DNA of 63,923 nt, filler included, from an uncultured bacterium (GTDB lineage Bacteria; Hinthialibacterota; Hinthialibacteria; Hinthialibacterales; Hinthialibacteraceae), in NCBI GenBank assembly GCA_964449065.1. It is 6 parts of 6 records of this genome, joined end to end, with 100 filler letters (N's around TTAATTAATTAA, not from the genome) between each part and the next. Parts side by side here need not be neighbours in the genome. Positions count along the whole stretch, not along the records: positions 11,575 to 22,983 come from CAYVAZ010000159.1; 5 more parts are not named here. The stretch is one strand, 5' to 3'. Numbering within the stretch: position 1 is the first letter of the stretch; each line of letters begins with the position of its first letter. Below are positions 2,949-34,336 of this stretch, piece by piece. The position numbers and the translations under genes were made by a program. The notes under the pieces were generated by a model. The model saw nothing but the letters and a program-made list of their open reading frames with translations. It had not been told where the DNA came from and made no database searches.

Positions 2949-5900
2949 ATGACTGGAACGCGAAGCCGCCATAAAGAAGCCATAGTCTTTTGCCTGGTAT
3001 TGTTGGCGGCCGCGGCCTTGTTTTGGTGGCGCGTCTGGATTCCCAATGCCGGCGACCGCATGCACTTCACCGATGACATTTTCATCAAAGACTACGCCAC
3101 CCGCATCGGGATGTTTTCGACCGCCCTATCCGGATACATGCCGCTTTGGGACCCGTATCAATTCGGCGGCTGGCCGGGGATCGCGAATTGTGAAGCGGGT
3201 TTTTTTTATCCTCCCAATTGGGTCATTGTTCCCTTTTTAAACCAACCGCAAACCGCGTTTTTTGTGACGGAATTGTTGGTGCTGCTGCACATGGTTATCG
3301 CCGGATTGGGGGCCTTTCAGTTGGCGCGGTCAATCGGGTTGTCCATTCCTTCATCCGCCTTTGCGGGGTTTGCCTTTACCTTTTGCGGTTTTCATTGCGC
3401 TCATAAAAAGCATACCAATATGTTGTTTGCGCTGGTTTGGTTTCCTTGGATATTGCTTTGTATTGAGAATTGGTTAAGAGAACGCAAAGAGAAATTTCTT
3501 ATCATAGCAACCGTATTATTGGCGTTGGCGTTTGTTGCAGGACACCCGCAATCTGCTTTGTACATGTCTCTGATTCTATTTGCAAGACTGCTTTATGCCG
3601 GCATATCCAACAAGGATAACGTTTCCTGGTTATGTTCATTCTCATTTGCCGGACTAGGCGGCATGATTATCGCGTTGGCGTTTGGGTTAACCGCCGTGCA
3701 ATGGCTGCCGACCGCGGAATTAATCGAACAAAGCGCGCGCGCCGAGGCCGATCAATATCAGCGCAGTACGGAATTTTCTCTTCCGCCGCTGGAACTGGTT
3801 GATGCGATTTTGCCGGAAGCAGTCAGTCCCTGGCATCAAACCGAAGTGTTTTATTGGGGCATTGTTCCGCTGATATTAACGTTGCTTTGTTTACGGTTTT
3901 CTATATCAAATGCACTTTTGAAATTTTTGTTGGTTGTGGGAGTTGCCTCCGTGTTTTTTGCGCTGGGGGAGTATTTTTTCGTTTACGATCTTACCTATTT
4001 GCTCATCCCCGGCACCGCGTGGGTACGCGCCCCCAGCCGTTGGATCTACTTTGCCAGTCTGCCGGTTGCACTCACCGCCGCTTATGTATTGGACCGGTTT
4101 AACACCAGCGATATCCATCCCCCCGTATGGCTGCGGTCTTGGATCAAACCGGTATGGCTCGTTTGGGGTGTGCTGCTGCTTGGGGTATTGCTTTGGATTC
4201 TTTTGAATCCGGGCACGGCGAACGAACCGAATTCCGTGCAAAGGTTGACGCAATCCAAATTGATTCTGTTGGTGATCTTCTTTGGACTCTTTGCCGCTGC
4301 CATTCATGCCTATTCCAATCACCGGATACGCCACCGTACTTTGGTGTATGGTATGCTTTTGATAACGTGGGCGGATTTGGCAACGCATTATCATCAATTG
4401 GATTTGGCGCCGGGAGAGGGGGGTCATGCCGAATTAACGGAAACCGAAAAACATTTGCTGCAAGACGATGAACACCGAACCAAAGTGTTTTTGTATGAAG
4501 GTGGCAACCGTACCCGATACCACGGGGCCGCGCAGTTGTTTCGGGAACTGGATGGACAATCGCCTTTAACGCCCCGCATCCATTTGGAAATTCGCGAGGA
4601 TACCGCGGTGAAAAATCCCAAAATACCAAACGAAACATTGCTGAAGTTGTTTCATGCCGATTCTTTACTTCATGATCAAAGCGGTTTTCCCCCTTCGTTT
4701 CAAAACGTGGAGGATTTGTTATTTGCGTTTCAGAATCCCTATCCACGGGCAATGGTTTTGCCGGAAGAGTTTCATGTCGAAACGGCCTATCAACGCCGGT
4801 TGATGAGGCTGCAATCTTTTCCGTACAGCAAGGTATCCGTGATGGATCAATCGAAAAGCGCAATCGCGGAAACCTTTAAGCCATCCCCTGCCACTCCGTT
4901 TTTATCCAAACCATTCCTGTTGGCGAGCGCCTCATCCGACGCGGTACAATCTTCCGCCCGTCTGATCATTGATGGAGTGAATCATTTTGAAGAAACAACC
5001 CATGATACCGGCTACGCGGTGGCCGTGATCGATCCACAAACCGCTAGGGTCGAATCGGTCAACTCATTTAATTTGCCTTCCACAGAACCCAATCCAGACT
5101 TGCCGAAGGAACAAGAATATGCGGAACAAAAACGAATGCTGGCATTTATGGAATCGGTGCAGCCGGGCAAAACCGTCATGGCGGTTGTGCACGACAACGG
5201 GGCAAACAATTTAGGCGTGCAAGGCGTGCTGGCATTGCGGCAAATCGGTGTTATGAGCGATCTACGCAAAGCCCCGCTGCGCTTGGCGCATCTTATTATC
5301 GGAAAGAAAGGGGCTCCGGTTGGATCCGCGATTGAGATTACTTCTTCAACAGAAGCAATGGTGCTGCAAACCGGACATTCATTCTATTATTCCGGATTGA
5401 TTACCGGAAAGCCGAAACGAAGATTGTATGCCACCATCAATAACGCTCCGGAAATTTATGATTTGTATAACAAAACATTTCCTCAAAATTATGAAGGATT
5501 TCTGATTCAAAACTCCAGTGATATACAAAACGGGGAATTTCCTGTGCCGATTCTGGTTTACTCCGCCCCCAAAAAAACACCGCCTATCACGCCAGATCAA
5601 GCATCCATCCAAATTCGCGGGAAGGAATATTCACTCAATCAAACCGGTTATAATATTGTGGTGGCAGACGGGAACACCTTAGAAGTTAAAGATCAAAAAA
5701 TTTTCAATCTTTTGCTGGATTTACAAAATGTAGTAGAACGGCCTGTAAACAAAGAATTTCAGAACTATTTACGGTCCGTAGAAGAGGGGGATTATATTTT
5801 TGGTGCCATACGCGATGAAGCAATCGATTTGATGACTACCGAAACAAGAGATTTATTGCGTTCATTCGGCTCCACACTCAATGCCCCCATTGAATCCAAT

Positions 5901-13664: not shown

Positions 13665-15014
13665 ATGTTGAACCAAGTTCAAACATCACTGGCTGGCATA
13701 TCCATGCCCGCGATCCCGCCAGCTTCCAAAAAGCCGACCGGAGGCCGCATATCAACCCCGAAAATTCGCTCTTATCTGCGTGATCCTGATAGCGAGGAAT
13801 ACGGCCTCGATCAGGACTATGACCGCTATGAGCTATTATTGCTGGTAAAACGTGCCGGTAAAGCCGCCGGTTTTTCAAGAAGCATGACAGCCCTTCTTGA
13901 ACATTACATCATGTACACGCAGGATATTGACTGGCAGGAAGGCAGCTTCCCTATCGTTTTCAAATCGCTTGAAAACATTGCCCTCGATATGGGGTTATCA
14001 CCGCGCCAGATACAAAACCTAGAAAACCACCTTCACGAAGCCGGTGCAATTACGTGGAATGATAGCGGTAATCACAGACGTTATGGCCGCCGGTGTTCTG
14101 AAACCGGCATGATCGAGTTTGCTTTCGGTGTGGAGTTGACCCCCCTCGCCGCTTTAAAGCCGGTTCTGGAGCAGAAATTGACCGAAAAACAAGCCTATGA
14201 TAAAGCTTGGAAAGAGGCCAAGCGTCAGATTTCTTATTACCGCCGCCAAATTAGAGCCGGACTTGATGCCCTTGAGCAAATCGAGAGCCGTGAGCTGGCC
14301 AAATTAAGCAAGGAATATGATGAAATCAGCCTATCTATCCGCGCCCATATGGACTTAGAGCGTCTTAATGACCTTTTGGCAAGCCATAAAGAGCTGTATA
14401 GTGCGGTAGATAGTCAATTCGATATGAAGAACGAGCCTTGTGAACAAAACAGTGAATTGTCACAAGAAATTTCGCCCAAGGACGTAAATAATTGCGCCCA
14501 CATAGAATCTACAATCCAAAAACAAATCTTTAAAAAGATTACTTGTAGCGACAAGCGCATATGCTTTCAGAAAAGCCGTAGTCGAATTTCGGAACATAAA
14601 ACCGAAAAGCCGGTGCAAACGGATAGTTCAGGAAAACATAGTTTAGTGGAATCCGCAGGATTACAGCATATAACACTCAAACAGCTTCTTAATGCCGCAA
14701 CACCGGAGTTTAAAGATCATATTCCTTTAGCAAATCGGGCTATGGAATGGGGCGATTTTGTTGAAGCGGCCAGTAAACGCAAAGATCACCTTGGCATCAG
14801 TAATGCCGCATGGGGGCGGGCTTGCCAAACCCTTACGCGAAACGGTGCTGCCATCTGCCTTTTGCTGGTCGATCAGGGTGCGCAGCGTGAAGAAAACCGT
14901 GTGAGAAGCCCTATTCGCTACTTTAACGCTATGGTTAGCCGCGCCAAATCCGGCGAGTTGCACTTACAAAAATCAGTTATGGGGATTTTGAAACGGGAGT
15001 ATGAATATGCCTAG
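13665..15014 (+). CDS. repC: Plasmid replication protein RepC
   Basis: DWQEGSFPIVF, DSGNHRRYGRR..AFGVELTPL, LGISNAAW, VRSPIRYF motifs; AAGGAG RBS. Confidence 0.88.
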   Translation: MLNQVQTSLAGISMPAIPPASKKPTGGRISTPKIRSYLRDPDSEEYGLDQDYDRYELLLLVKRAGKAAGFSRSMTALLEHYIMYTQDIDWQEGSFPIVFKSLENIALDMGLSPRQIQNLENHLHEAGAITWNDSGNHRRYGRRCSETGMIEFAFGVELTPLAALKPVLEQKLTEKQAYDKAWKEAKRQISYYRRQIRAGLDALEQIESRELAKLSKEYDEISLSIRAHMDLERLNDLLASHKELYSAVDSQFDMKNEPCEQNSELSQEISPKDVNNCAHIESTIQKQIFKKITCSDKRICFQKSRSRISEHKTEKPVQTDSSGKHSLVESAGLQHITLKQLLNAATPEFKDHIPLANRAMEWGDFVEAASKRKDHLGISNAAWGRACQTLTRNGAAICLLLVDQGAQREENRVRSPIRYFNAMVSRAKSGELHLQKSVMGILKREYEYA

Positions 15015-15692: not shown

Positions 15693-16475
15693 TTATTGTC
15701 CCCCCATAGTCATGCTATTTGGAAGGCGAACAATAGAATCTTCGTATGTTTGCAAAACTTCTAAGGTTTCAGCAAGCCGGTCGCGGGCAACTGTATTATC
15801 TATATTTTTACGTCGTTGCATGGCTTTGACATAGAAGGTTAAAAAGTCTAGCTTTGATTCTGCTTTAAAGGCATCCGCGCCTGTATAAATTGGCACGAAT
15901 ATTTTGGCAACGGTGCTGTCATTGATAATAAAGCTAATATTGTAGAGGTGTTTTCGCCATTCAGGGGTTATGTCTTTGGTATATCCCCGCCATGCCCAAT
16001 AATGCTTTATGGGTTCATGTTGTTCTTTTTGAATGAGGGTTTCAAATATGGAATCTTCTATGGCATAAGTCCGGCCATCTATAACGATTTCATCATCTGT
16101 AATTTTCAGATCAGTGCGGGTTTTCTTCCTTCCAAAGAGCAAAAAGCCAGTAAGAAAACGAAATACAAAATAAAATGCTATCCCCCCTATTATAACAGAT
16201 ATGAAATTGCGCATTTCCTTGTCGTCAGGAAGGTTTTGGTTAATAAAAGCTACTTCATACGTCAAATCAACTAAGGGAAAATATAGCTCTTTTGTGGCAC
16301 TGAAATACGTGAAAGCCAATGCTATAATGATCGAAGCCATTTTCACGCGATCAAGGGCGTGGCTGGATGAAGGGTGATATGGCCAAAATGTTTTTATTGT
16401 CATTTCCAGACTATCATCGTTCCAGATAATTGCCGGAAAGCCTCTCTTCATAAACCGTTTCAAGGTTTCGTTCAT
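15693..16475 (-). CDS. Hypothetical membrane protein
   Basis: Two TM segments; coupled to virD4 (ATGA overlap). Confidence 0.75.
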   Translation of the reverse strand: MNETLKRFMKRGFPAIIWNDDSLEMTIKTFWPYHPSSSHALDRVKMASIIIALAFTYFSATKELYFPLVDLTYEVAFINQNLPDDKEMRNFISVIIGGIAFYFVFRFLTGFLLFGRKKTRTDLKITDDEIVIDGRTYAIEDSIFETLIQKEQHEPIKHYWAWRGYTKDITPEWRKHLYNISFIINDSTVAKIFVPIYTGADAFKAESKLDFLTFYVKAMQRRKNIDNTVARDRLAETLEVLQTYEDSIVRLPNSMTMGGQ

Positions 16476-18070
16476 GACAAATGCTCCTTGAAAAGATCGA
16501 AGAAAAATCTGTTTTCTTTGCTATCGTCATAATGAATTATGCGTTGCAGGATCATCGGGCTGTGCCCGCTATGAATGATAAGTTGCCGGTGCAAGGGATC
16601 ATCTCGCCCGAAATACCGGCTGGCTTCCTCTGCGGAAATCAGGTCTGTAACAGTCAATGAACGTGTTAAACGCTCTATCGGGGCATCTTTGCGCTGTTCT
16701 TGCGGGGTTGTTGAGCCAATTTGTTCAAGAAAAATCGCTGTTTTTCCAACACGCCGTTCTATAAATTCCAGTGTTTTTGTGTCGTTGTTACCAAAAAACT
16801 GGATTATTCCCGAATTTCCGAGGAATGTTTGCCATCTGTCTTTGTATAACGCTTCCAGTTGCCCTAAATCCTGTAGAATCGTCCACATTTTAACCCCGAA
16901 ACCGGCCATAAGCCCCGCCGCCGTTTCGAGCTGTTTCATATAGCCAAGCACTGGAAACTCATCCAGAGCCATTAAAACCGGTGGTTTTTCAAGGCTATGA
17001 TCGACTTCCCCTACTCTTTCCATTGCATCTATGGTGAGATTGATAAAGAGCCTTAGCCATCTGTTACAGGTTTCTAGCTTTGACGCGGGAAGGCACATGT
17101 AGATTGTTGCGCCATTCGGGTTGGTTTTGAGTTCCGATAAATCAAAACTGCGTTCGCCATCACTTAAAACATCTTGCATTTCCCGATAGCGCAAAAAGGA
17201 TAGATGCCGTCTGGCTGTAGAGAGAACAGAGTATTTTTCATTATCTGGACGCTCTGAAAAATCCAGAGCCGCCGCCTGTATATTGAAAGCCACATCGGTC
17301 AAATTGTGATTATTCGATTTTTCACCCTTTGTTTTTAACCGGCTGGCGTTTTGTTGCATTTCGCAGATCAAACCATGAATGCCGGTATGATCGACCTTCT
17401 TGCCGCTTTTGCTTTCACTGCAATCTGTACCGTTGGCGATCAGTTGCCATACCGTTACAAGGTTTCGGTTGTTCTCATAAGCTTTGATTTTCGCTGTGCA
17501 GACGTGAAGGATCACGCCTTCGATCAGTGTTGCCGCAGACATATCCCAATGGGGGTCTTTGCTGTCCGGATTCGGAACAACCAGTGCATCCGTAATAATG
17601 GCGGCATTCTCGATTATATCGGGATCATTTTCCCCCATATTGGAAAGCGGGTTAAAAGAAGCTCTGTAATCGGTTGCATCACCGTTGCAACGCTTATAGG
17701 GATCGAGGATATAAACGTCCTGTCCAAGCCCCCTACCCCGCCGAATGGCCGTTGAGCTGGCCAGTTCTGCTTTAGGATCAATAACCAGTACCGAGCCACG
17801 GTAAAAAACAAGGTTTTGCTTTAATGCAACTGACTTTCCGCTTCGTGATCCTGCGACTGTCGTAATATGCCGGTCGTCATTTATTCCGATCGGTTTTTCA
17901 TCAATGCAACCGAGCAAGATTTTCTTGCCGTGGTCGTCAGGATTATCAATGTTGTATGTTAAACGGGAATCATTCAGGATTTTTTCCAATGGCCGCCATC
18001 TAGCCGTTGGAAGTGTATTTAAAGGCCGCTTTGCTAAATCGCGCGGTAGATCATACAGTAAATCCTTCAT
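16472..18070 (-). CDS. virD4: Type IV coupling protein, VirD4/TraG family
   Basis: Walker A AGSRSGKS, VIDPKAE, LDEFPVLG, QDLGQL..Y. Confidence 0.9.
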   Translation of the reverse strand: MKDLLYDLPRDLAKRPLNTLPTARWRPLEKILNDSRLTYNIDNPDDHGKKILLGCIDEKPIGINDDRHITTVAGSRSGKSVALKQNLVFYRGSVLVIDPKAELASSTAIRRGRGLGQDVYILDPYKRCNGDATDYRASFNPLSNMGENDPDIIENAAIITDALVVPNPDSKDPHWDMSAATLIEGVILHVCTAKIKAYENNRNLVTVWQLIANGTDCSESKSGKKVDHTGIHGLICEMQQNASRLKTKGEKSNNHNLTDVAFNIQAAALDFSERPDNEKYSVLSTARRHLSFLRYREMQDVLSDGERSFDLSELKTNPNGATIYMCLPASKLETCNRWLRLFINLTIDAMERVGEVDHSLEKPPVLMALDEFPVLGYMKQLETAAGLMAGFGVKMWTILQDLGQLEALYKDRWQTFLGNSGIIQFFGNNDTKTLEFIERRVGKTAIFLEQIGSTTPQEQRKDAPIERLTRSLTVTDLISAEEASRYFGRDDPLHRQLIIHSGHSPMILQRIIHYDDSKENRFFFDLFKEHLS

Positions 18071-18108: not shown

Positions 18109-18762
18109 CTAGTTTCCGGCTGCCGGTTCAATAGTTGCAGCGTCAATTTTTGCACTCGCAACTGTTAATTGACCGGAATACAAGGCATAGCCCCCTACTC
18201 CGACTATTAACGCAATCACTGCAACTGCAACCATAGCCGTCATATTTCTGGATTTATTTTCGTTTGCCGGTTCTACAGGCTTTTCTTCTTTTTGGGCGAG
18301 TTCTTTTTTGGTTAAGTCCTCGATAAGCCGGTCATGCCTTGAAACGGTATCAATCAGGTTGTTGATTTGGTCTGTGTAATTTTCTTCTTTGCCCCTACGC
18401 TCACGAATATCATCTTCCAGACGGCGATTAGTGTCTGTGAGGGCTTCCAATCTGATTTCAAGTTTCTCTTTTTCGTGCAATGCTTCTTGCAACTCGCCTT
18501 TTAAATCCGAGATTTTAGGGTTTTTGCCGACAGTTGCGGAGCTGTTGCTTTTGGTTGTTTTCTTACCGCCCTTCCCTTTTTGGGAATCTTTAAGCCTCTG
18601 CACTTCGGCGGCAGAAACTTTAAATTCGCCGGTTGCATCATCTTTATCGGCAGAGAAAACCCCGCTTTTATGCCATCTTGAGATAGTAGATTTATTCTTC
18701 CCAAGGATTTCTGCGGTTTCCTGAAAGTTAAAAAATGGCTTGTCTTGTATGTTCAATGTCAT
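18109..18762 (-). CDS. HTH DNA-binding protein with coiled coil and C-terminal TM helix
   Basis: ETAEILGKNKSTISRW HTH, heptad region, hydrophobic MVAVAVIALIVGVGGYALY; start uncertain. Confidence 0.75.
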   Translation of the reverse strand: MTLNIQDKPFFNFQETAEILGKNKSTISRWHKSGVFSADKDDATGEFKVSAAEVQRLKDSQKGKGGKKTTKSNSSATVGKNPKISDLKGELQEALHEKEKLEIRLEALTDTNRRLEDDIRERRGKEENYTDQINNLIDTVSRHDRLIEDLTKKELAQKEEKPVEPANENKSRNMTAMVAVAVIALIVGVGGYALYSGQLTVASAKIDAATIEPAAGN

Positions 18763-19146
18763 GGTTGCACCTAGTTTCATAGCTTGTTGCGCAATTAGAT
18801 ATGCAATCAACTGTACAACTCTACCAAGTTTTGATGGAAAAATGAATCTGGTTTTTCCAAAAATTATGAGAAACCCACATGCAACTATGCGCAACCAATT
18901 TTAAGGGTGTTTTTAATGTGTGATAAGGAAGCGGTTGCGCAACTGGTTGCGCATATGATGTGGAGTAGGGTAGGGCGGTTGCAATACACGGCCAACATCA
19001 AAATCATAATAAAAACAGCACTTTGCGGGAGTGTGATTGCCAGTTGCATAAAATAAGTTACCGTTGCATCCAGTTGCGCAACTAAAAATCGTTTAGTTGC
19101 AACGGGTTATTTGCAACCGTTAAAGTGTTGTTGCAACTTAGTTGCC
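18763..19146. repeat. Dense GTTGCA/TGCAAC/GTTGCGCAAC repeat cluster upstream of the HTH gene
   Basis: More than 12 copies in both orientations within about 380 bp. Confidence 0.75.
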
Positions 19147-19455
19147 TGTGATTCCAAATTGTCGTTTTATGAGCTTGAGCAACCGGTCGGTTTCTTCAAA
19201 TCTCCTATAAGGCTCAGGAATATCCAGGCATTGTATAAATCGTTTGAGGAGTAGGGCGGTTTTTTGATCTTTTTTGAAGTATGCAAGGCAGTCTTCGTAT
19301 TCGTAAGGCTCGATAGGGCGATCCATAGATTCTGTTTGTATTCGTTCTAATTGTTCGATCAAATCCCGCGTATATAGATTATCGGCTTCTTGATCCTTCC
19401 AGGAAGCAAAGGGCATGTTTGCCATGAATTTCTGATATGGGTTAGATGAGAACAT
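19138..19455 (-). CDS. Hypothetical protein
   Basis: ORF 19138-19518; the track's GTG start lies inside a terminator hairpin, so ATG 19455 or a later start is more likely. Confidence 0.55.
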   Translation of the reverse strand: MFSSNPYQKFMANMPFASWKDQEADNLYTRDLIEQLERIQTESMDRPIEPYEYEDCLAYFKKDQKTALLLKRFIQCLDIPEPYRRFEETDRLLKLIKRQFGITGN

Positions 19456-19494
19456 AACAAGAACATTTATCACGTCATATTCTGGAAGGCAATT

Positions 19495-19520
19495 AAAAAG
19501 GGTGGCCTTGTGAGCCACCC
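19495..19520 (-). terminator. Intrinsic terminator of the sRNA
   Basis: 7-bp stem GGGTGGC/GCCACCC followed by U5 on the minus strand. Confidence 0.75.
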
Positions 19521-19538
19521 CCGCATCGTAACGAAATA
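19495..19538 (-). ncRNA. Putative ~43-nt antisense sRNA against the tRNA-like RNA
   Basis: 5'-ATTTCGTTACGATGC-GG-GGGTGGC-TCACAAG-GCCACCC-TTTTT; the first 15 nt are complementary to 19648-19662. Confidence 0.65.
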
Positions 19539-19544
19539 TGAATA

Positions 19545-19574
19545 ATTTTACCTTCTTTAACCGATTAAAGTCAA
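19545..19574 (-). promoter_or_regulatory. Sigma70-like promoter of the sRNA
   Basis: TTGACT-N18-TAAAAT. Confidence 0.65.
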
Positions 19575-19620
19575 GGCGTGAAGCCCTGACTTAGGTGCGG
19601 GCTTGTGACGGGAGGCGGGT

Positions 19621-19694
19621 GCGCCGATAGCTTAATCGGATAGAGCAGCATCGTAACGAAATGCGAGGTGTGGGTTCAAATCCCGCTCGGCGTG
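19621..19694 (+). tRNA. Atypical tRNA-like RNA (Arg-like body, nominal anticodon AAC, no encoded CCA)
   Basis: Acceptor GCGCCGA/TCGGCGT, D arm GCTT-AATCGGATA-GAGC, anticodon arm GCAT(C)-GTAACGA-(A)ATGC, T arm GTGGG-TTCAAAT-CCCGC. Confidence 0.8.
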
Positions 19695-19848
19695 GCCTTC
19701 CTATCGGCGGCATATAATTTTACCACAAGCCCGCACTGGAATGACTCCTTGATTAAAAATCCTGCAACCGGATGAGAGAAAATACCTATGAAGCGGGGCA
19801 GGGGTGTCAAAGAAAAATAGGACGGTGCAATTTAGCCCGAAGACTTGA

Positions 19849-19883
19849 GGGCGCAATAATTGCTGTTTGCGCCCGCATTTTTA
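19849..19883 (+). terminator. Possible terminator downstream of the tRNA-like RNA
   Basis: GGGCGCAA..TTGCGCCC stem followed by a T-rich tract. Confidence 0.45.
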
Positions 19884-20074
19884 TTGATAGCCCTGACAGG
19901 CTATAGATCATGTCGTTCCCGCGTTGCAGAAACTTAAATAATGAATCTTTCGATGCTTTGTGGTACATTACTTCGTAATGTTTTTTATAAAGCAAGCCAT
20001 GTATTGTCATGACAATACAGCTTGGCAAGGGGGTAACGCCCCCCGTTGCATCCAACTAAAAAAGCGCAGGGAAG

Positions 20075-20488
20075 ATGGAAGAAACAACTGAACCAGCTAC
20101 GCAAAAACGCCCCGTTTATGATGATAAGATCGAGCTGCGGTGTTACAAGCATGAGCGTGAAAACGCGCTCGAAAATGCGAGGCTGGCAGGGTTCAGGTTT
20201 CTATCTGCTTACATTCGTCATCGTTGCTTTTTTGATCCTGTGACCGGTGAGGCACATGACCAGCCCAAAAGAAAGCCAAGCAAAAAAATGCCATTGGCTA
20301 CGATGGACGAGCTGGCCAAAATGACCAGAGAGTTGAACGCGATTGGAAACAATTTAAATCAGCTTGCAACTCTAGCGCATACAGACCGCATTCCTAATGC
20401 GGATCGTTATGAAGCCCGATTGGAAGAGGGGGTGTTTGAGTTGCAAACCTGCGTTGCAACCATCATGAAATATGTAGGGGGTACATAA
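20075..20488 (+). CDS. mobC: Mobilization accessory protein MobC
   Basis: RHH-like LSAYIR and ELNAIGNNLNQLA motifs; directly upstream of the relaxase. Confidence 0.88.
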   Translation: MEETTEPATQKRPVYDDKIELRCYKHERENALENARLAGFRFLSAYIRHRCFFDPVTGEAHDQPKRKPSKKMPLATMDELAKMTRELNAIGNNLNQLATLAHTDRIPNADRYEARLEEGVFELQTCVATIMKYVGGT

Positions 20489-20491
20489 ATC

Positions 20492-22195
20492 ATGATTATT
20501 AAATCAAGTATCAGAGGATATTCCGGCGAGTTGGCGCGGCATTTAGGAAACGGGCATGATAACGAACAAGTCCGGATTATTGGTGCAAGCAACAATTTTA
20601 TGCGTTTTGACCGGCTTGGATTGTCCAATTCAGAAGAATTGCACCTGCTTCTAAAACAGATGGATTTGGAAGCAACCGGTCATAAAAAGGACAGCAACCA
20701 TCTTTGTCATGTGAGCATAAGTCCGGAAGTTGAAATGGACGAGATACAATATGCCCGTTCTTGGGAGCTGTATGAACGTGAGTTCAAGCTAGAGGGTAGA
20801 ATGTATATCGAGGTTGAGCATGAAAAAGAAGGCCGCACACACCGGCACCGCGTATATTATGCCTTGGACGAGAAGGGGCGTTATATGAATAATTCCAGCA
20901 GTTATCCCCGCAACGAGAAAGTTGCACGGTTGCTTGAATTTGAATTTGGCCATGATCCTACGGCAGGGCGGTTTAATCAGGCCGTCCATAACTGGCTCTT
21001 AAGCCGTGATAAAGAGATCGAGGTCGCGGAATGGATGGAAGATTGCGGGTTGCTTTATTGTGAAAGGCCGGTTGCACAACAGACATTTCGGGAAAAGCAG
21101 ATTTCCGAGCGCACCGGCCTCGATCAGGCCGCCATAAAAGAATTTGTGGCTCTATCCTACGAAAATTCAGATACCGGCAAGGCTTTTGAAGCATCACTGG
21201 CCGAACATAATCTTTATCTGACCAGAGGTGATCGTGATTCAAGGCGCGGCAGGGCAGGGCGGTTTGTTATTGTTGATGGTGGCGGTACGGCAACGTCTTT
21301 AAATCGTTGCGGCGTTAAGATTAAGGAATTTTCCGAAAAGTTTTCAGACATACGATATGAGCATTTGCCGACCGCTTCTTCCGTTCAGGATCATGTTCGT
21401 GAACAAAATAAGGATCAGGATAAAGAGCGCGAGGGCAAAGATGGTGGCGGTGAAAACTGGCGCGAGTTAAAAGCACAGAACAAATTGTTAAAATCTGAAT
21501 CTGAAAACCTGAAAAACCTGGATGAAAAATTCGCGAGGCACATACAGGGGCTTTGGGATCAATACCACAAAGCCAAAGAGCCGTATCAGGATAAGATTGA
21601 TAAGGTTTACTATTACAAGAAGGAAAAGCTTAAAAAATCTTATAAGCCCCAATGGAGGAAGCTTTTTCGGAAGCATGAGAATGATATTAGGCGCGCCAAA
21701 GCCGACTATATCAATATTCCGAACAAGTTAGTGCTACTATACAAATATAGAAAAGAGATCAGGCAGCACTATGGCCAAAAAGAGTTTTGGAAATATGCCC
21801 GTTTTTGGTTCAGTAAGAAGAAGCAGTTGGATTTTATTGAAAAAGGCCATCTGGCAGATAAGAAAAATCTTATGGAGCGATATAGCCGTGATTGCCTTGA
21901 GCTATATCAAAGAGAGATACCCAAAACCAAGCATTACATGAAAATCCAGACTTTGCGTTTTGAAACAAAGGCGGCTGTAAGTCAGTTGAAGAAAAAACAG
22001 GATGTTGTCCGTGAAACACGCAAGCAAGGATATATTGAACAAAAAAGACAGTTCTTGGAAAGGCAAAAAGAGCATGGCGCATCCTTGCGAGACGATATAG
22101 CCAAAATGAAGGGTAGGGGAATGGGGTTCCGGCCAAAACTGCGCCGGATTGATTTTGAAAAAATGCGCGAACAAGATATTGAGCGCAAAAGATAA
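20492..22195 (+). CDS. Relaxase (MOBP-like HUH)
   Basis: MIIKS N-terminus, HVSISP, EHEKEGRTHRHRVY; basic C-terminus. Confidence 0.85.
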   Translation: MIIKSSIRGYSGELARHLGNGHDNEQVRIIGASNNFMRFDRLGLSNSEELHLLLKQMDLEATGHKKDSNHLCHVSISPEVEMDEIQYARSWELYEREFKLEGRMYIEVEHEKEGRTHRHRVYYALDEKGRYMNNSSSYPRNEKVARLLEFEFGHDPTAGRFNQAVHNWLLSRDKEIEVAEWMEDCGLLYCERPVAQQTFREKQISERTGLDQAAIKEFVALSYENSDTGKAFEASLAEHNLYLTRGDRDSRRGRAGRFVIVDGGGTATSLNRCGVKIKEFSEKFSDIRYEHLPTASSVQDHVREQNKDQDKEREGKDGGGENWRELKAQNKLLKSESENLKNLDEKFARHIQGLWDQYHKAKEPYQDKIDKVYYYKKEKLKKSYKPQWRKLFRKHENDIRRAKADYINIPNKLVLLYKYRKEIRQHYGQKEFWKYARFWFSKKKQLDFIEKGHLADKKNLMERYSRDCLELYQREIPKTKHYMKIQTLRFETKAAVSQLKKKQDVVRETRKQGYIEQKRQFLERQKEHGASLRDDIAKMKGRGMGFRPKLRRIDFEKMREQDIERKR

Positions 22196-22268: not shown

Positions 22269-22559
22269 ATGGGAATACACGTATCTTTACCCGATGAGCT
22301 GGAATTAAAAATTCACCAGAAAGTCAGCACAGGCATGTATGGCAGTGCAAGCGAAGTTGTGCGCGAGGCCTTGCGCAATTTTTTTGCTGGCGATACCGCG
22401 ACCGAAGAAGTCGATATCACCGATGAAGAATTTCTTACATTTTTCGGACCGATGATCGAAGAAGCCGACGCCACGCCTGATGAGGATTATATTTCTTGGG
22501 ACGAGCTGCAAGCCGGTAAAGACAAAATACGCCAGAAATACCATGACAATGGCCAGTAA
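22269..22559 (+). CDS. parD: ParD-family antitoxin
   Basis: VSLP..KVSTGMYGSASEVVREALR RHH motif with acidic tail. Confidence 0.85.
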   Translation: MGIHVSLPDELELKIHQKVSTGMYGSASEVVREALRNFFAGDTATEEVDITDEEFLTFFGPMIEEADATPDEDYISWDELQAGKDKIRQKYHDNGQ

Positions 22560-22905
22560 ATACGAAATTCTTCTATCGCCTAAATTCAAGCGGGAATACG
22601 AAAAACAATATGAATGGTCGGTCGGAAGACACGGGCAGGTTCAGACCGATGATTTTTTCAATCAACTCGACAAAAAGATTAACAATCTAAAACAAGATCC
22701 AAAGCTTTTTGCTGAAAGAGCGGGCACCGGCTACCGCTTAATGCCAATCAAATCGGCGGTCGTTTTATACAAAGTGGATGATAGAAATAAGCAGGTTAAG
22801 CTTGCTAGTCTGGTTAAAGGCGAGCGTATGAAACAGATATATCAGGAAAGAGGAAGAGAACTCAAAAGAGAGAAGAAGGGCAGGGAATTAGGGCGGTCAA
22901 GATAA
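22549..22905 (+). CDS. parE: ParE/RelE-family toxin with basic C-terminal extension
   Basis: YEILLSP..WSVGRHGQVQTDDF..LKQDP..GYR..VVLYKV; overlaps parD; start 22543 or 22549. Confidence 0.75.
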   Translation: MASKYEILLSPKFKREYEKQYEWSVGRHGQVQTDDFFNQLDKKINNLKQDPKLFAERAGTGYRLMPIKSAVVLYKVDDRNKQVKLASLVKGERMKQIYQERGRELKREKKGRELGRSR

Positions 22906-29109: not shown

Positions 29110-31230
29110 TTACGTTAACCGGGATGAATACCACATCTCCAGCATCAACAACCCTGCCACCGCGATCACAAAAAAAATACCATACTCATTCCTCTGAACC
29201 GTTTCTTCTTCAATTAGTGTATCTTCCTTCGTATCAATCCGTTCCAAATTGGGCGAAGCACAATACCGCAGCACAAACTCATCGGCCGGCACCGGCTCCA
29301 CATCCGCTTCTTCGCTATCTACATTAATCGCATAAACATAGTGTTTTTGTTCATTCTCTATTTCCTGTCTCCACTGCAATAACCCCGGTTCATCATAAAC
29401 CGTTTTCTCATTCCCAACCCAATCCTGCCATGTATTGCTTTCTTGGGTAGAGTAGCGGTACGATGCACTCTCCTCATTTCCTTCCATTTCAGGATACACT
29501 GCAATCGCTTCGCCAACTGTCCAATGATCCTGATGCCCGGTCTCTCCATACAAATAGAATAACATTTCATGCAGCAACGGCACAAATTTTTTGCTTTTCG
29601 GAAAATTTGTCCAATCCAACTTCATCGCATACGGCACAATCAATATTCGCGAATTCTCATTCGACATCTCGACCAATGAAGGGTATGCGGTATCATTCTC
29701 TTCGCTCTCAAAATACGATATCACCCGCGCCATCCGGTTGGATTGTTCGGAAGATTCTTCTACATTCAAACGGTAATAACGGTAAAACCGGTAAGACGTA
29801 AAATCGTTAAACTTCTCTCCCTGAAAGATGGTAAACACGGGATGATCAAAATCGATTCGTGAAATCAACGAATAGCGTCTGGGATCAAATGTCTCACGGC
29901 TTACACCGTCATTTCTGATGTTTAAACCGGTTAGATAAGCGGTAAGCGTATCTTGGTTTGCCGTCTCATCCAAAAAGAAAATGGCTTTCATACCGGCATT
30001 CCACGTTTGCAGCAGGATATCCAACCGGTTTGAATTCAATCCGCTCCAATCACTAACCAACAGGATGGATGAATCATCATTGGCTTCTACCAATGCATCA
30101 GCCAGTGGTAAGGTGGTAACATCCCACGGCATCTTCTCCGAATATGTCAGCGCTTGATGAATAAACCAAGCGGAAGAATTAACATCCTGATAGAAATTCG
30201 ATACCAAAGTAACCGGTATTTCCGCATCCGGATTCTTGACAAAATAATGTCTGTTATCCCTATTAAGATCGTCTTCATCCACTTCAAGCCGACCGGAAAA
30301 TACTTGCTTCGTCTTTTGCATATTAAAAAACACTTGCGAGGCATTCCCCGCCTTCACATACACATCACGGGTGGCTGCCATTTCATTGTTTACCCACAAA
30401 TCAACCGGTATCTCTTTGTCCTCACCAGTCCAATTCTTTATCTTTCCAACCACACGCAGGTTATCCTGCCGATCGCGAACATGGGTATCCAAAACCGAAA
30501 CATTGTTCGGCGCTTCATATTCTTCTTGCAGTGAAACCACTTCCAACTCCATCTTCGATGACAACTTCCACCCCGAAGTCTCTTTCGCCATCCCCACACG
30601 CTGCATATCCGAGATCAAATAAATCTTTAACCGCGGCTCATTCTCATCCATCCCCTGCACCGCGTTCAACAGCTCTCTCTCAACATCCTGCAAGCAGGAT
30701 ACAAAATCAGTGGATTCATTGCTTAACGCCGCGCGCTGCAATTCCCGCGCCATCGTCTCTTGCGACGCGGCCGCAGAAACCTCTCTCATATTCAAGTCAA
30801 AATCAGCCAATGGTTTTCGATGAAAAGGGATCAACTTTACATAATCGTTTGTGGATAATGATGACAATATTGATGCCGCTTTTTCTTTTCCTTCTGCAAA
30901 CCGCCCATCCATTCCCATGCTGTATGATACATCCAATAAAATCGCGTTAATGGTTGTATTCTCATCAATCTCAGCCGCGATATCGCTTGTCCAAAAAGGC
31001 CTTGAGAACGCAAGGAACAACAGCAGAAACAACAGCATCCGCAACAGCATTAACAGCCAATGCTGAATCCGCCGCCTCTCAATCACTTCTTTCTTCACAT
31101 GCGGCACAAACAACAAACTGCTGAACTCCACCGGTTCCCGTTCGGGCCTGCGGATATGATGCAAGATCCACGGCACCACCACCATCACCGTACCGGCCAA
31201 CAATGCAGGAAAGAGAAACGAAACCATCAC
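29110..31230 (-). CDS. BatA N-terminal plus vWA domain protein
   Basis: FLFP..PWILH..FSSLLF..LLLFLAFSRP; DVSYSM MIDAS; ISD. Confidence 0.85.
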   Translation of the reverse strand: MMVSFLFPALLAGTVMVVVPWILHHIRRPEREPVEFSSLLFVPHVKKEVIERRRIQHWLLMLLRMLLFLLLFLAFSRPFWTSDIAAEIDENTTINAILLDVSYSMGMDGRFAEGKEKAASILSSLSTNDYVKLIPFHRKPLADFDLNMREVSAAASQETMARELQRAALSNESTDFVSCLQDVERELLNAVQGMDENEPRLKIYLISDMQRVGMAKETSGWKLSSKMELEVVSLQEEYEAPNNVSVLDTHVRDRQDNLRVVGKIKNWTGEDKEIPVDLWVNNEMAATRDVYVKAGNASQVFFNMQKTKQVFSGRLEVDEDDLNRDNRHYFVKNPDAEIPVTLVSNFYQDVNSSAWFIHQALTYSEKMPWDVTTLPLADALVEANDDSSILLVSDWSGLNSNRLDILLQTWNAGMKAIFFLDETANQDTLTAYLTGLNIRNDGVSRETFDPRRYSLISRIDFDHPVFTIFQGEKFNDFTSYRFYRYYRLNVEESSEQSNRMARVISYFESEENDTAYPSLVEMSNENSRILIVPYAMKLDWTNFPKSKKFVPLLHEMLFYLYGETGHQDHWTVGEAIAVYPEMEGNEESASYRYSTQESNTWQDWVGNEKTVYDEPGLLQWRQEIENEQKHYVYAINVDSEEADVEPVPADEFVLRYCASPNLERIDTKEDTLIEEETVQRNEYGIFFVIAVAGLLMLEMWYSSRLT

Positions 31231-32165
31231 GCCCCTCCTGCCGAAATGTTTTTATTCACACTGGATGTATACAACGCGTGGTTCCTGCGGTGCAAAAAAT
31301 GATGCAGCGCGCGGTCCAGCGGTTCGGTCGTCACAAACTCTTCCACATCAATCTCCGCCGCGCGGCACTCCCGCTGAATTCCGGCAAAATGATTCCGCCG
31401 GTTCTCCAAATACCCGCCGCGAACCGCGTCCGGTACCACAAACTGCTCATCCTGCGATTCCACATCCACCAGCGTCACCGTCCGGTCAAACGGAAACGTC
31501 TGTTCCGCCGGGTCGCTGATCTGCAAAACCAGCACATCATGCCGCCGCGCCCGCAGCGATTTTAAATGCTTCAGCATCTCATCCAGCGGATGCAGCAAAT
31601 CCGATATCAACACCACCATCCCGCGCGGCTTTAACACATTTCCTACGTAAGCCAATGATTTATCCGTATCGGTCTTGCCCTGCGGCTTTACATTATCCAA
31701 CGCGGTCAATACATGAAACAAATGCTGCGGGCTGCTTTTGGGATGCAAGTGCTCAAAAACGCTGTGATGATAAGCCATAAACCCTAACGAATCGTTCTGC
31801 TTAAACAGCATCATGGTTAAACAAGCCGCCAGCATTCTTGCGTACTGAAATTTGGTAAGTTTCCCCGACCCGTAATTCATCGAAGAACTGCAATCCAACA
31901 AAATCGTGCATTGCAAATTGGTTTCTTCATGAAACATCTTCACATGCAGTCGGTCAGACCGCCCATACAAGTTCCAATCCACAAAGCGCAGGTCATCGCC
32001 TTGCACATAGGGCCGGTATTGTGCAAATTCCAATGAAGAACCATGCAGGGGGCTGCGGTGCATACCGCTGAATGAGCCTTCAACCACCGTCCGCGCCAGC
32101 AATTGAAGATCGGATATGTTCATTAAATCGGCTGGATCTACATGCTTAAATTTCTTGGAATTCAT
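31227..32165 (-). CDS. DUF58 (vWA-like) protein
   Basis: GMHRSPLHGSSLEFAQYRPYVQGDDLRFVDW, DCSSSM. Confidence 0.9.
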   Translation of the reverse strand: MNSKKFKHVDPADLMNISDLQLLARTVVEGSFSGMHRSPLHGSSLEFAQYRPYVQGDDLRFVDWNLYGRSDRLHVKMFHEETNLQCTILLDCSSSMNYGSGKLTKFQYARMLAACLTMMLFKQNDSLGFMAYHHSVFEHLHPKSSPQHLFHVLTALDNVKPQGKTDTDKSLAYVGNVLKPRGMVVLISDLLHPLDEMLKHLKSLRARRHDVLVLQISDPAEQTFPFDRTVTLVDVESQDEQFVVPDAVRGGYLENRRNHFAGIQRECRAAEIDVEEFVTTEPLDRALHHFLHRRNHALYTSSVNKNISAGGA

Positions 32166-32172
32166 ACAGACA

Positions 32173-33204
32173 TTATGCCAAACCCGATTTCGGCTCGGCA
32201 ACCGTTTCTAAGATTTTTTCAATGATGTGATGAACCGTAATGTGATCGGCTTCCGCCCTAAAGTTGGTCAAGACGCGGTGATTCAATACATGCGGTGCCA
32301 CCGCGCGAATATCCGCAAACGTTACATGAAAACGCCCCTGCAGCAGCGCACGCGTTTTCGATCCCAATATCAAATACTGCGTCCCCCGTGTTCCCGCGCC
32401 CCAGCTGACCCACTCCTTCACAAAATCCGGCGCATTGGGAGATTCCGGCCGCGACGCATGAATAATCTGCACCGCATACCGCGCGATCGGCTCCGCGATC
32501 GGAACCATCCGCACCAGCCGCGCAAAGTTGATCATATCCTCACCGCTAAACACTGGAGTTAATGTATAATCCGTAACCGCGGTGGTTTTGGTGGCAACTT
32601 CCAACTCTTCTTCTACACTCAAATAATCGATCTTCACGTTAAACATAAAGCGGTCGAGCTGCGCTTCCGGCAGTGGATATGTTCCTTCCAATTCAATCGG
32701 GTTCTGCGTCGCGAACACATAAAACGGCTTATCCAGCGGACGACCCACACCGGCCGCGGTAACTTGCTTTTCTTCCATCGCCTCTAATAAAGCCGATTGC
32801 GTCTTCGGCGGCGTCCGGTTAATCTCATCCGCCAGTAATATATTCGTAAAAATCGGCCCTGGGATATACCGCAACTCCCGGTGACCGGTGGTACGGTCTT
32901 CATCAATGATTTCCGTTCCCGTAATATCGGAAGGCATCAAATCCGGCGTAAACTGAATCCGCTTGAACTGCAAATCCAAAATGTCAGACAGCGAACGAAT
33001 CAAAAGCGTTTTTGCCAGCCCCGGCGCTCCCGTCAGCAAACAATGAGACCCGGAAAACAGTACAACCATCAGCTGCTCAATAACCTTATCCTGCCCCACA
33101 ATAACTTTCCGCAATTCGGCGTTCAGTTTTTCTCTACCCTGGTTAAATTTTTCCAGAATTTCTTCTTCTTGCGTAATGTGCGGTATAGCGGTTTCGTTTT
33201 GCAA
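32173..33204 (-). CDS. MoxR-family AAA+ ATPase
   Basis: GAPGLAKT, RIQFTPDLMPSD, LADEINRTPPKTQSALLEAM; probable TTG start at 33204. Confidence 0.93.
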   Translation of the reverse strand: MQNETAIPHITQEEEILEKFNQGREKLNAELRKVIVGQDKVIEQLMVVLFSGSHCLLTGAPGLAKTLLIRSLSDILDLQFKRIQFTPDLMPSDITGTEIIDEDRTTGHRELRYIPGPIFTNILLADEINRTPPKTQSALLEAMEEKQVTAAGVGRPLDKPFYVFATQNPIELEGTYPLPEAQLDRFMFNVKIDYLSVEEELEVATKTTAVTDYTLTPVFSGEDMINFARLVRMVPIAEPIARYAVQIIHASRPESPNAPDFVKEWVSWGAGTRGTQYLILGSKTRALLQGRFHVTFADIRAVAPHVLNHRVLTNFRAEADHITVHHIIEKILETVAEPKSGLA

Positions 33205-33354
33205 TGTGCCTCTCTCTTTCTGAAATGATCGTAACAGGCCAGCGGTATGAAATGAAAAAAGTTGATACTTATCACTCCTATTTAATACTCTATTTAACCC
33301 GTTTGACAAATCGAGTTGTTTGTCAATCAAAAAATGACGGCTGGCTATCCGTTG

Positions 33355-33394
33355 TACCCCCTTGTTAAGGGGCTTCTAGGGGGGATCGATCCCC
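33355..33394. repeat. Degenerate copy of the GC-hairpin repeat
   Basis: CCCCTTGTTAAGGGG..TAGGGGGGATC resembles 11278-11307. Confidence 0.6.
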
Positions 33395-33487
33395 GTCATT
33401 TAATCGTTGACACAATACTTGAAGTTTATTGTTCCATGCGATGGACGGTTTCGCGAGCCACTCTTTTTCATCTCTCATCCCTAATCC

Positions 33488-34336
33488 CTAATGCGTCATC
33501 GCATATACAACAATATTGATTCCCAATGGATAGGCTTTCTTTTTGGATATTTCTTCAAAATATTGTGGATTTTTAGCTTCTTCTTCCCAGCCGTCGCCTA
33601 GATCGGAATTATGGTTGATCACCGCCATCAACCGCCCATTCTTATCCCACACCCCTTTCAGGGAAACTTTGCCGTCACCATCTCCATACCGGACTTCTGA
33701 AGTCCGTCCGCCCGAACCGGCCCAATACCCAATCCCCGGTATCTGCGGCACTTCTTTCAACTCAAATACAATATGAAATAATTCATGCTCCAGCGGGATA
33801 TCAATCATGGGATAGTCTTCCGGTGGAAACACCTTACTGAACTCAAATTCCCAGTTTTGCCAATCCCGCTGTCCCCAAAAATCATCCACCAGCAAAAATC
33901 CCCCGCGCAACAAATACTCGCGCAGATTTTCCGCCTCTTGTTCGGTAAAATACAAATCACCGACTTCCAGCATGTAGATGAAGGGATAATTAAATAATTC
34001 TTCGTCGGTCAACCGCACCACGGCATGTTGATAGTTGCCGTATTCATCCGTATTGACTTTAATCGTGGTCAGTTCCGATAAACGAATGGAAAAATTCTCT
34101 TCCGATTCCGGAAAATCAACCGCCCATCTGCCGCCGCCCCGGCCCCAGCCTCTGCCGCCGCTGTTATACATCACCCGGCAAAACGTAAAACTGTCCGTTG
34201 GAAAAATATCTCTCTCGGGAAGGGAAAGCGAGCGGTCTCTTCTTCCACGCCAACGCTGCGCATTGGATTCTTCCACCATGAAAAATGGAACAATCAGCAG
34301 ACTAAGCAATACGATGGGTAAAATGTATTTCGTCAT
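33488..34336 (-). CDS. DUF4159 domain protein with signal peptide
   Basis: YPFIY, LREYLLRGGFLLVDDF, HNSDLGDGWE, GINIVVYAMTH. Confidence 0.88.
   Translation of the reverse strand: MTKYILPIVLLSLLIVPFFMVEESNAQRWRGRRDRSLSLPERDIFPTDSFTFCRVMYNSGGRGWGRGGGRWAVDFPESEENFSIRLSELTTIKVNTDEYGNYQHAVVRLTDEELFNYPFIYMLEVGDLYFTEQEAENLREYLLRGGFLLVDDFWGQRDWQNWEFEFSKVFPPEDYPMIDIPLEHELFHIVFELKEVPQIPGIGYWAGSGGRTSEVRYGDGDGKVSLKGVWDKNGRLMAVINHNSDLGDGWEEEAKNPQYFEEISKKKAYPLGINIVVYAMTH

Follow-up and report, generated by a model that had tools for sequence, protein, structure and literature searches.

Compact pairs of two non-coding RNAs, one of them complementary to the other and with no protein involved, are known as type VIII RNA-RNA toxin-antitoxin pairs (SdsR/RyeA and CreTA). 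Cloverleaf-shaped antisense RNAs are known from phages (C4 of P1 and P7, and CI of P4), and antisense RNAs control plasmid functions in the hok/sok, RNAI/RNAII, and FinP/traJ pairs. Here, we describe a plasmid locus that resembles each of these in part. It lies within a 63.9-kb window (the whole stretch of DNA that we analyzed) from a metagenome-assembled genome (MAG). A 258-bp segment of this window, which we call the module, contains a tRNA-shaped RNA gene on the + strand and, 125 nt away, a second exact copy of 15 nucleotides from its anticodon arm; on the minus strand, the second copy lies between a promoter-like site and a terminator-like hairpin. We lean towards the view that the segment at 19497-19754 is a portable RNA-RNA module, in which an antisense RNA of ~44 nt would pair with nucleotides 27-41 of the tRNA-shaped RNA. 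Our literature search, which was not exhaustive, found no publication that describes a plasmid-borne tRNA-like RNA together with an antisense RNA dedicated to it.

The type VIII pairs are like the module in that they are compact and protein-free and consist of two non-coding RNAs, one complementary to the other. In the module, however, the target is tRNA-shaped, the antisense RNA would have a separate gene with its own copy of the seed, and there is no link to CRISPR. C4 and CI have a tRNA-like fold in which a short exposed sequence matches a nearby site, and the matching sequences differ between relatives and set the specificity, as they seem to do here. But C4 and CI act on complementary sites of the same transcript, whereas the two copies in the module are direct repeats, so pairing in the module needs a transcript from the opposite strand. 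Also, C4 and CI belong to phage immunity regions, while the module belongs to the region of a plasmid's origin of transfer (oriT). In the hok/sok-type pairs, as is predicted for the module, the antisense RNA is small, ends at a terminator, and has a constitutive-looking promoter, and changes in the pairing region give new specificities. Unlike in those pairs, the target here is neither an mRNA nor a replication primer, and the antisense RNA would be encoded in trans by a duplicated seed. T-box leaders, too, end in a terminator and pair with the anticodon region of a tRNA; in the module, the pairing would span 14-15 nt and include a strand of the stem, rather than a 3-nt specifier, and the tRNA-like partner is encoded by the module itself. 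(Rfam gave no match to a T-box fold at E up to 5 on either strand of 19400-20100.)

The module may also resemble the Frpo and ssi elements in its layout. As these are described in PMC11541004, the features in common would be a predicted hairpin beside oriT on the presumed transferred strand, elements like -35 and -10 boxes, an A+T-rich stretch, and an orientation that makes the transferred strand the template. The differences are that the product of the module would be a tRNA-shaped RNA and not an mRNA, and that its -10 lies in an internal loop.

A gene for a tRNA-shaped RNA with an aberrant anticodon arm

ARAGORN calls a tRNA-Val with anticodon AAC on the + strand (19620-19697), and the Rfam tRNA model (RF00005) scores 47.1 bits on 19621-19694 (the gathering score is 29). 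Both agree with the full cloverleaf that an initial annotation of this DNA had read there. The body of the RNA is of the Arg type: among the 42 tRNAs of the MAG, the closest are Arg(CCG) and Arg(ACG), each identical at 56 of 78 positions. In a DNA search of 20 genomes from the MAG's family, the only match was a 28-nt stretch that is 93% identical to the tRNA-Arg(TCT) of a related genome. The T-loop, the GG of the D-loop, U8, A14, and the 15-48 pair are intact.

The unusual part is the anticodon arm, with the loop GUAACGA, G at position 32, and a C31.A39 mismatch. U33 is nearly universal in decoding tRNAs, and a canonical decoding loop has U33, a purine at position 37, and a closed 31-39 pair. 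Neither this copy nor the related gene from plasmid Do28_2 (described below), whose loop has C33 and U37, fits this description. Because neither of the two loops resembles a decoding loop, a miscoding tRNA, which the initial annotation had suggested, is argued against, and we do not think that the tRNA-shaped RNA decodes codons. The copy on Do28_2 encodes CCA after G73 (L008 4075-4077), and the window copy has GCC there. We also considered a +1 frameshift-suppressor Arg tRNA with an expanded loop, and dropped it: the arm has the canonical 17 nt, and the loop is not kept in Do28_2.

A small minus-strand unit with a copy of the arm

The 15-mer GCATCGTAACGAAAT occurs exactly in the anticodon arm and again at an offset of 125 nt (Table 1). 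There is no further copy in the window with up to 2 mismatches (0.27 are expected by chance) or in the 5.2-Mb MAG with up to 1 mismatch. When we shuffled 19300-19900, none of 2000 shuffles had a direct repeat of at least 15 nt, and the longest was 14 nt, which was seen once.

On the minus strand, the upstream copy (the seed) occupies the gap between the best promoter-like site and a strong terminator. The promoter-like site, P1, matches at 10 of 12 positions, is the best of 4 such sites in 18500-20500, and has 7 nt between its -10 and the seed. The hairpin (19522-19498) has 10 pairs and is followed by T5. The predicted minus-strand RNA has a folding energy of -18.4 kcal/mol (z = -2.97) that leaves its 5' 15-17 nt essentially unpaired. 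The repeated 15-mer, the promoter-like site, and the hairpin with its U-run had all been pointed out in the initial annotation. We confirmed that the 15-mer is repeated exactly and has no further copy, and the hairpin has the clear shape of an intrinsic terminator; the promoter-like site is present, though such sites are no commoner than chance (see below).

A second plasmid with a different but matching arm

A permissive blastn search with 19594-19737 against 72,556 plasmids gave one match (E = 0.03), which was plasmid Do28_2 of Desulfosarcina ovata (locus L008). This plasmid is 16.4 kb long and is typed as MOBP and mobilizable; its relaxase is 28% identical to that of the window over 125 residues. 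The tRNA-like gene of Do28_2 (L008 4001-4074) scores 54.4 bits with Rfam, against the same gathering score of 29, and is called Val-GAC by ARAGORN. As in the window, oriT separates this gene from mobC and the relaxase gene, and its orientation is the same.

A repeat finder that was run blind on Do28_2 returned an exact 14-nt direct repeat (3900-3913 and 4028-4041), which was reached in 2 of 2000 shuffles of the region. The copy at 4028-4041 corresponds to tRNA positions 27-40, so it is in the same register as in the window, and the spacing is 128 nt (vs. 125). Inverted repeats are found in the same places as in the window: one of 39 nt (92%) surrounds the tRNA, and another of 21 nt (95%) links the 5' part of the tRNA to the trailer. 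Reading the minus strand by hand, we found TTTACA-18-TAATCT, then 6 nt, the seed, a hairpin of -19.4 kcal/mol, and U6.

The two tRNA-like genes are identical at 47 of 57 positions outside of the anticodon arm and at 6 of 17 positions inside it (Fisher p = 4e-4). Within the first 14 arm positions, 9 differ between the plasmids, and at every one of these (9/9) each upstream copy follows its own arm. Co-variation between the arm and the upstream 15-mer was what the initial annotation had proposed to look for, and it holds in the single homolog that we found. In silico, the small RNA is complementary to its tRNA-like partner at 15/15 positions in the window and 14/14 in Do28_2. For the cognate pairs, cofolding has a predicted gain of -13.9 and -14.0 kcal/mol; swapping the partners reduces this to -0.1 and -2.4 kcal/mol. 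Both sequences also keep the cloverleaf: 97.6% of the cells are paired, and 4 pairs are changed on both sides (vs. 0 in slid controls). The conserved wobble pairs G1.U72 and U13.G22 work only in the + strand RNA, and the trailer's complement to the acceptor strand follows a change from G3 to A3.

Given that an unrelated second plasmid has the same layout with a different but matching arm, the match looks selected. We see no gene in the module for a protein that might co-vary with the arm, so the matching partner is most simply a nucleic acid. Gene conversion cannot keep an island of 14-15 nt matched, as there is no flanking homology. The simplest explanation would be selection for base pairing with a transcript from the opposite strand, and the arm, which evolves fast, looks like an address by which each plasmid keeps its pair to itself.

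To look for other members, we searched genome and metagenome collections with patterns from the window copy, before Do28_2 was found. An exact 25-mer gave no further member in the genome-contig collection, and neither did gapped tRNA patterns in the metagenome-contig and viral-contig collections. The trailer pattern had 43 loci in viral contigs, none of which (0/43) had a tRNA. With a pattern that allowed up to 3 mismatches, we found 2 ordinary tRNAs in 401 genomes from the class of G035, nothing in 401 genomes from the phylum of G037, and nothing in the 3 genomes that contain L005-L007. A blastn search of the 1-kb region against plasmids had no match at E = 1e-5; with the Do28_2 module as the query, the plasmid matches were Do28_2 itself and 6 short matches (at most 20% of the query). 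Against phages, blastn found tRNA-Arg genes of phages at ~76% identity and no member. The related backbones L005, L006, L007, L013, L014, L015, L016, L017, and L018 have no tRNA-like gene, and Rfam did not find one in L013, L014, L016, L017, or L018.

The module is present or absent as a unit

We aligned public assemblies to 19100-20100, with runs aligned at 80% likeness. In run X4 (wastewater), a 159-nt contig joins 19496 straight to 19755, so that 258 nt are absent. The flanks of this joint are 105 nt (6 differences) and 54 nt (1 difference), which corresponds to a relative that is ~95% identical. A contig from run X5 (marine) has the same joint, but it has 24 nt on one side, which is under our 31-nt rule, so it is weak evidence. 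Both contigs have a depth of 2, and they represent close relatives, not the same molecule. Runs X2 and X3, from the study to which the probable source also belongs, contain the left part together with the module: a contig of X2 spans 19100-19794 with 0 differences, and one of X3 spans 19439-19612 with G>A at 19488. None of the 7 runs that contain this stretch is listed as an RNA run.

The absent segment extends from the base of the terminator to 17 nt past the right arm of the outer inverted repeat, and it almost coincides with the span given in the initial annotation (19495-19737), although the two were defined independently. The empty site reads 7 A, not 5, so insertion (with or without a target duplication) and deletion between the flanking repeats look the same. 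These data support the tRNA-like gene and the small minus-strand unit being one discrete DNA unit. The initial annotation is thus partly supported: the unit is plasmid-borne and discrete, and its arm co-varies with the upstream copy.

Within the module, a perfect 13-nt inverted repeat surrounds the tRNA (19595-19607 and 19724-19736), the 11-mer ATAATTTTACC occurs exactly at 19542 and again at 19714, and 19552-19568 is a 17-nt inverted match to the D-arm (82%). Six open reading frames (ORFs) of at least 20 amino acids overlap the module. We did not take them for genes because they are either the upstream extension of ORF105, the neighboring gene, or short frames across the tRNA-like gene. No small ORF resembling a type I toxin lies inside the module, among frames of at least 20 amino acids and one frame of 18 amino acids that we inspected by eye; the latter is on the + strand directly after the 15-mer and is not hydrophobic.

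We rejected two other origins for the segment. For a miniature inverted-repeat transposable element or another transposon-derived element, the 13-nt inverted repeat is in the wrong place, as it flanks the tRNA part only and not the 258-bp indel; the flanking ATTAAAAA repeat is ambiguous, given the 7 A of the empty site; and there is a single copy in the MAG. For a remnant of an integrase attachment site, the identity ends at tRNA position 40/41 rather than at the 3' end of the tRNA, 125 nt separate the two repeats, of which the downstream one belongs to the complete tRNA, and there is no integrase among the ORFs that we scanned on this contig.

Proposed mechanism

In what would be a mobilizable plasmid, oriT lies between the module and the relaxase genes. 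We infer that both of its strands are transcribed. The + strand would give the tRNA-shaped RNA, with its Arg-type body and its non-canonical, fast-evolving arm, nested in two inverted repeats. The minus strand would give the small RNA, from a minimal unit in which a promoter is followed by a 15-nt seed, single-stranded at the 5' end of the RNA, and then by an intrinsic terminator. By pairing with the tRNA-shaped RNA from the same plasmid, the small RNA may open the weak anticodon stem, and this base pairing would be the selected feature. As for the direction of control, the pairing might neutralise the tRNA-shaped RNA, titrate it, or mark it for cleavage. The role that we favour is tight control of an RNA that is transiently useful or harmful, perhaps in the establishment or maintenance of the plasmid.

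If real, the module would be a protein-free and portable RNA-RNA addition to the accessory functions of plasmid transfer regions. The anticodon arm would be a freely evolving address, with each plasmid carrying its own matching antisense RNA, and by prediction the two natural modules are orthogonal, with about -14 kcal/mol in cognate combinations and about 0 in swapped ones. It would also be a caution that a tRNA match on a small plasmid may be neither a translational tRNA nor an integration scar.

Several observations weigh against this proposal. A promoter scan found no double-stranded-DNA promoter for the tRNA-like gene on the + strand. P1 by itself is not significant, as 18500-20500 has 4 promoter-like sites and shuffled sequences have 3.7 on average. 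For Do28_2, the scan called no promoter and no terminator where they would be expected; the -10 that we read by hand matches at 3 of 6 positions, and an internal loop interrupts the hairpin. The co-variation is a single comparison, since only two members are known. Seeds that were shuffled in Do28_2 sometimes equal the cognate energy (the minimum was -15.4 kcal/mol), and if the tRNA is kept in its flanking stem, then cofolding gives no net gain (-80.0 vs. -80.0 kcal/mol). The module is dispensable, as it is absent from the X4 relative and from eight related loci. Finally, the upstream half of the module is collinear with the tRNA half (score 45.25 vs. 24.3 +/- 4.3; 0 of 1000 shuffles reach it). 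The blocks common to both halves are inverted-repeat-like sequence, the 15-mer, the 11-mer, AAGCCC, and TGACT, and the upstream half also has an inverted D-arm-like piece (reached in 15 of 1000 shuffles). The upstream half resembles a degenerate duplicate, so part of the identity could be by descent.

Alternative explanations

Descent of this kind is central to one alternative, a non-functional scar: a tRNA-Arg pseudogene would have been captured along with a rearranged partial duplicate, by slippage, template switching, or site-specific recombination at the arm. The collinear halves, the inverted D-arm-like piece, and the module's dispensability speak for a scar, and tRNA genes on plasmids are rare and are ascribed to integration and excision in PMC13478746. 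We still consider a scar to be very unlikely. It leaves unexplained why a distant plasmid has a re-matched copy in the same register, with the same spacing, strand, and flanking hairpins; gene conversion cannot move 9 differences over a 14-nt island without flanking homology; and besides the lack of an integrase among the scanned ORFs, there is no other copy in the MAG. The two RNAs might instead form an all-RNA toxin-antitoxin system, the main reading of the initial annotation, with a stable toxic tRNA-shaped RNA and a short-lived antisense antitoxin, which would lead to plasmid addiction. The architecture fits this, with a structured and probably stable RNA and a small RNA that has only a terminator; the pairs are plasmid-specific, the module is a discrete accessory unit, and addiction modules are at home on this plasmid, as it carries a classical ParDE pair. 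But nothing points to toxicity, and miscoding is unlikely because the loops are not kept as decoding loops (C33 and U37 in Do28_2). The lack of an evident double-stranded-DNA promoter would also be odd for a toxin that needs to outlast plasmid loss, so this explanation seems improbable to us. Another way to use the same pairing, also raised in the initial annotation, is as an attenuator: the promoter, seed, and terminator would be the 5' leader of a leftward operon, and the tRNA-shaped RNA would act in trans and set the read-through. The co-variation of arm and copy supports such trans pairing equally well. A minus-strand ORF does start 40 nt (window) or ~27 nt (Do28_2) after the terminator, and in the window this is ORF105, a real gene under purifying selection. 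We think that an attenuator is unlikely, however. The fold shows no competing anti-terminator, it is not obvious how a duplex formed upstream of the hairpin would alter termination, and Rfam has no T-box or other leader match (the best other match is the L20 leader, with 18.4 bits and E = 0.62). The leftward operons would start with ORF105 here and with a 48-amino-acid ORF and a DUF3991/TOPRIM gene in Do28_2; ORF105 is unrelated to the ORFs of Do28_2, and the X4 relative has ORF105 without the module.

The remaining alternative is compatible with antisense pairing, and both can hold. Tentatively, the module could include a signal like Frpo or ssi, in which the transferred strand, through the two inverted repeats, forms a promoter-like hairpin and RNA polymerase makes the tRNA-shaped RNA from it, or a primer for synthesis of the complementary strand. 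A hairpin promoter on the single strand would explain the absence of a double-stranded-DNA promoter for the tRNA-like gene. It is possible, but we are doubtful, that the product is made only while the plasmid is single-stranded in its new host, and that the antisense RNA, which depends on double-stranded DNA, shuts it off later. Folded as DNA, the minus strand of Do28_2 has an energy of -69.3 kcal/mol (z = -13.2), with a 32-bp outer stem that contains an A+T-rich stretch and a perfect TTGACA, TAAAAT in an internal loop, and a 23-bp inner stem. The minus strand of the window's module folds into a weaker version of this structure, with TGG-TAAAAT in the loop between a 13-bp stem and an inner stem of 9-10 bp (-31.6 kcal/mol, z = -3.1). 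However, the stem in the window lacks a -35, and the spacer between the -35 and -10 in Do28_2 is 15 nt. In both modules, TAATTTTAC is kept directly before the right arm of the outer repeat, and 6-8 nt past the -10 along the inner stem one reaches tRNA positions 1-3. The design works on the minus strand only, and the tRNA-like gene points toward oriT, as genes templated by the transferred strand must. If the relaxase gene enters last, as it usually does according to PMC11541004, then its position implies that the minus strand is the transferred strand. Against this, any nick site is putative and the transferred strand is presumed: motifs like the nick motifs of RSF1010 (TGCG/CCCT) and RP4 (ATCCTG/C) (PMC4814116) lie on opposite strands. 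Also, this -10 might do no more than drive antisense transcription from double-stranded DNA, or the stems could act in RNA instead, in processing or in sequestering the 5' half. An entry-timed RNA switch, with the tRNA-shaped RNA made only in the single-stranded phase and then turned off by the antisense RNA, is a speculative model; such an RNA could be an establishment factor, an anti-defence factor, or a primer. If the hairpin promoter is real, then single-strand promoters of leading regions can drive non-coding effectors besides anti-defence proteins, and this one would give a non-coding product from single-stranded DNA with a built-in off-switch.

Genomic context of the module

The window is a chain of six contigs of the MAG (C158, C159, C160, C161, C162, and C298), which were joined with N spacers and are not one molecule. 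Arguments from the neighborhood of the module hold only inside contig C159 (11575-22983; 11.4 kb). The MAG has 515 contigs and 5.2 Mb, and it is 86.7% complete. The features of the module and of C159 are listed in Table 1.

Table 1. Coordinates of the module, its parts, and the surrounding features in the window
Feature	Position	Strand	Comment
Whole module, 258-bp presence/absence segment	19497-19754		flanked by ATTAAAAA direct repeats at 19492-19499 and 19752-19759
tRNA-shaped RNA gene	19621-19694	+	ARAGORN, Rfam
Anticodon-arm copy of the 15-mer (tRNA positions 27-41)	19648-19662	+
Seed	19523-19537	-	exact complement of tRNA-like nucleotides 27-41
Promoter-like P1, sigma-70-like TTGACT-18-TAAAAT	19574-19545	-	promoter scan
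Terminator-like hairpin GGGGGTGGC/GCCACCC and U5	19495-19522	-	3' end of predicted small RNA
11-mer ATAATTTTACC, copy A	19542-19552		holds the -10 of P1 on the minus strand
11-mer, copy B, containing TAATTTTAC	19714-19724		minus strand reads TAAAAT (19722-19717), right after the outer stem
Outer inverted repeat, left arm	19594-19607		pairs with 19724-19737
Outer inverted repeat, right arm	19724-19737
Inner inverted repeat, trailer CTATCGGCG	19701-19709		9 nt; complement of the tRNA 5' strand, 19622-19630
ORF105 (acidic 105-amino-acid orphan)	19138-19455	-	starts 40 nt downstream of the terminator; outside the module
Conserved oriT-like region	19759-20070		core ~19990-20057 in L005 and in the Do28_2, Methylomagnum, and Nitrosospira plasmids
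RepC-type initiator	13665-15014	+	ORF scan of C159
TraG/VirD4 coupling protein	16472-18070	-	ORF scan of C159
Coiled-coil/helix-turn-helix protein	18109-18894	-	ORF scan of C159
NikA/MobC-like accessory protein	20075-20488	+	ORF scan of C159
MobA/VirD2-type relaxase	20492-22195	+	ORF scan of C159
ParDE pair	22269-22905		ORF scan of C159

With RepC, a coupling protein, MobC and the relaxase, and ParDE, contig C159 looks like a plasmid, which bears out the plasmid location that had been assigned to the element. C159 also encodes a helix-turn-helix/MqsA-like ORF. The relaxase has 30 relatives at E <= 1e-10 in a large protein database, and the nearest is 46% identical. There are 3 loci with relatives of the relaxase in the genome-contig collection, none in the metagenome-contig or viral-contig collections, and none in 34 other genomes of the MAG's phylum. 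Because the relaxase has few relatives and is absent from the 34 other genomes, it is uncertain whether the plasmid belongs to the binned host. The nearest sequenced backbone is L005, which is from an alphaproteobacterial MAG. L005 encodes the 46% identical relaxase, is syntenic, and has the oriT-like region (~19759-20070) in common with C159; at the syntenic place, it has no tRNA.

ORF105 has no homolog among 5.8 billion proteins, no Pfam family, and no usable match in the Atlas. It is nevertheless, to judge from its substitutions, a real gene under purifying selection: 10 of the 12 that are listed for the X4 relative are synonymous. On the presumed leading side of oriT, no gene would precede ORF105, which makes it a candidate establishment gene. 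About 8 GTTGCA(A/T)C repeats are clustered just downstream of it (19040-19145), and CGTTGCATCCA...ACTAAAAA occurs at 19062-19090 and again at 20043-20065. Two contigs from X3 match the 37-nt piece at 20021-20057 alone, with unrelated flanks, so this piece occurs in other replicons of the X3 sample. The sequences at 19040-19145 and 20021-20065 are probably a binding site for a relaxosome protein or a regulatory protein.

The core of the oriT-like region (19990-20057; L008 4609-4700; L005 5520-5580) consists of an inverted repeat, CTTGGCAAGGGG, a GC hairpin, and CCCCGTTGCATCC. Over ~45 nt, it is also found at 86-92% identity in plasmids from Methylomagnum, Nitrosospira, Devosia, Rhizobium, and Tritonibacter. 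Between the module and this core, 19845-19885 has a hairpin (TGAGGGCGCAA/TTGCGCCCGCA) and then a T-run on the + strand, which are kept in L005; the minus strand, TGCGCCCTC, matches the nick region of RSF1010, TAAGTGCG/CCCTCCC (PMC4814116). This hairpin could be a nick site or the terminator of a + strand RNA. TCCTG(C/T)AACCGGATG is common to 19759-19773 of the window, where it starts at the right boundary of the module, and to L005 (5275-5290). It resembles the nick motif of RP4, ATCCTG/C (PMC4814116).

Elsewhere in the window, and unrelated to the module, C160 has an aerotolerance-type cluster on the minus strand at 29110-34336 (BatA, VWA, DUF58, MoxR-AAA, and DUF4159).

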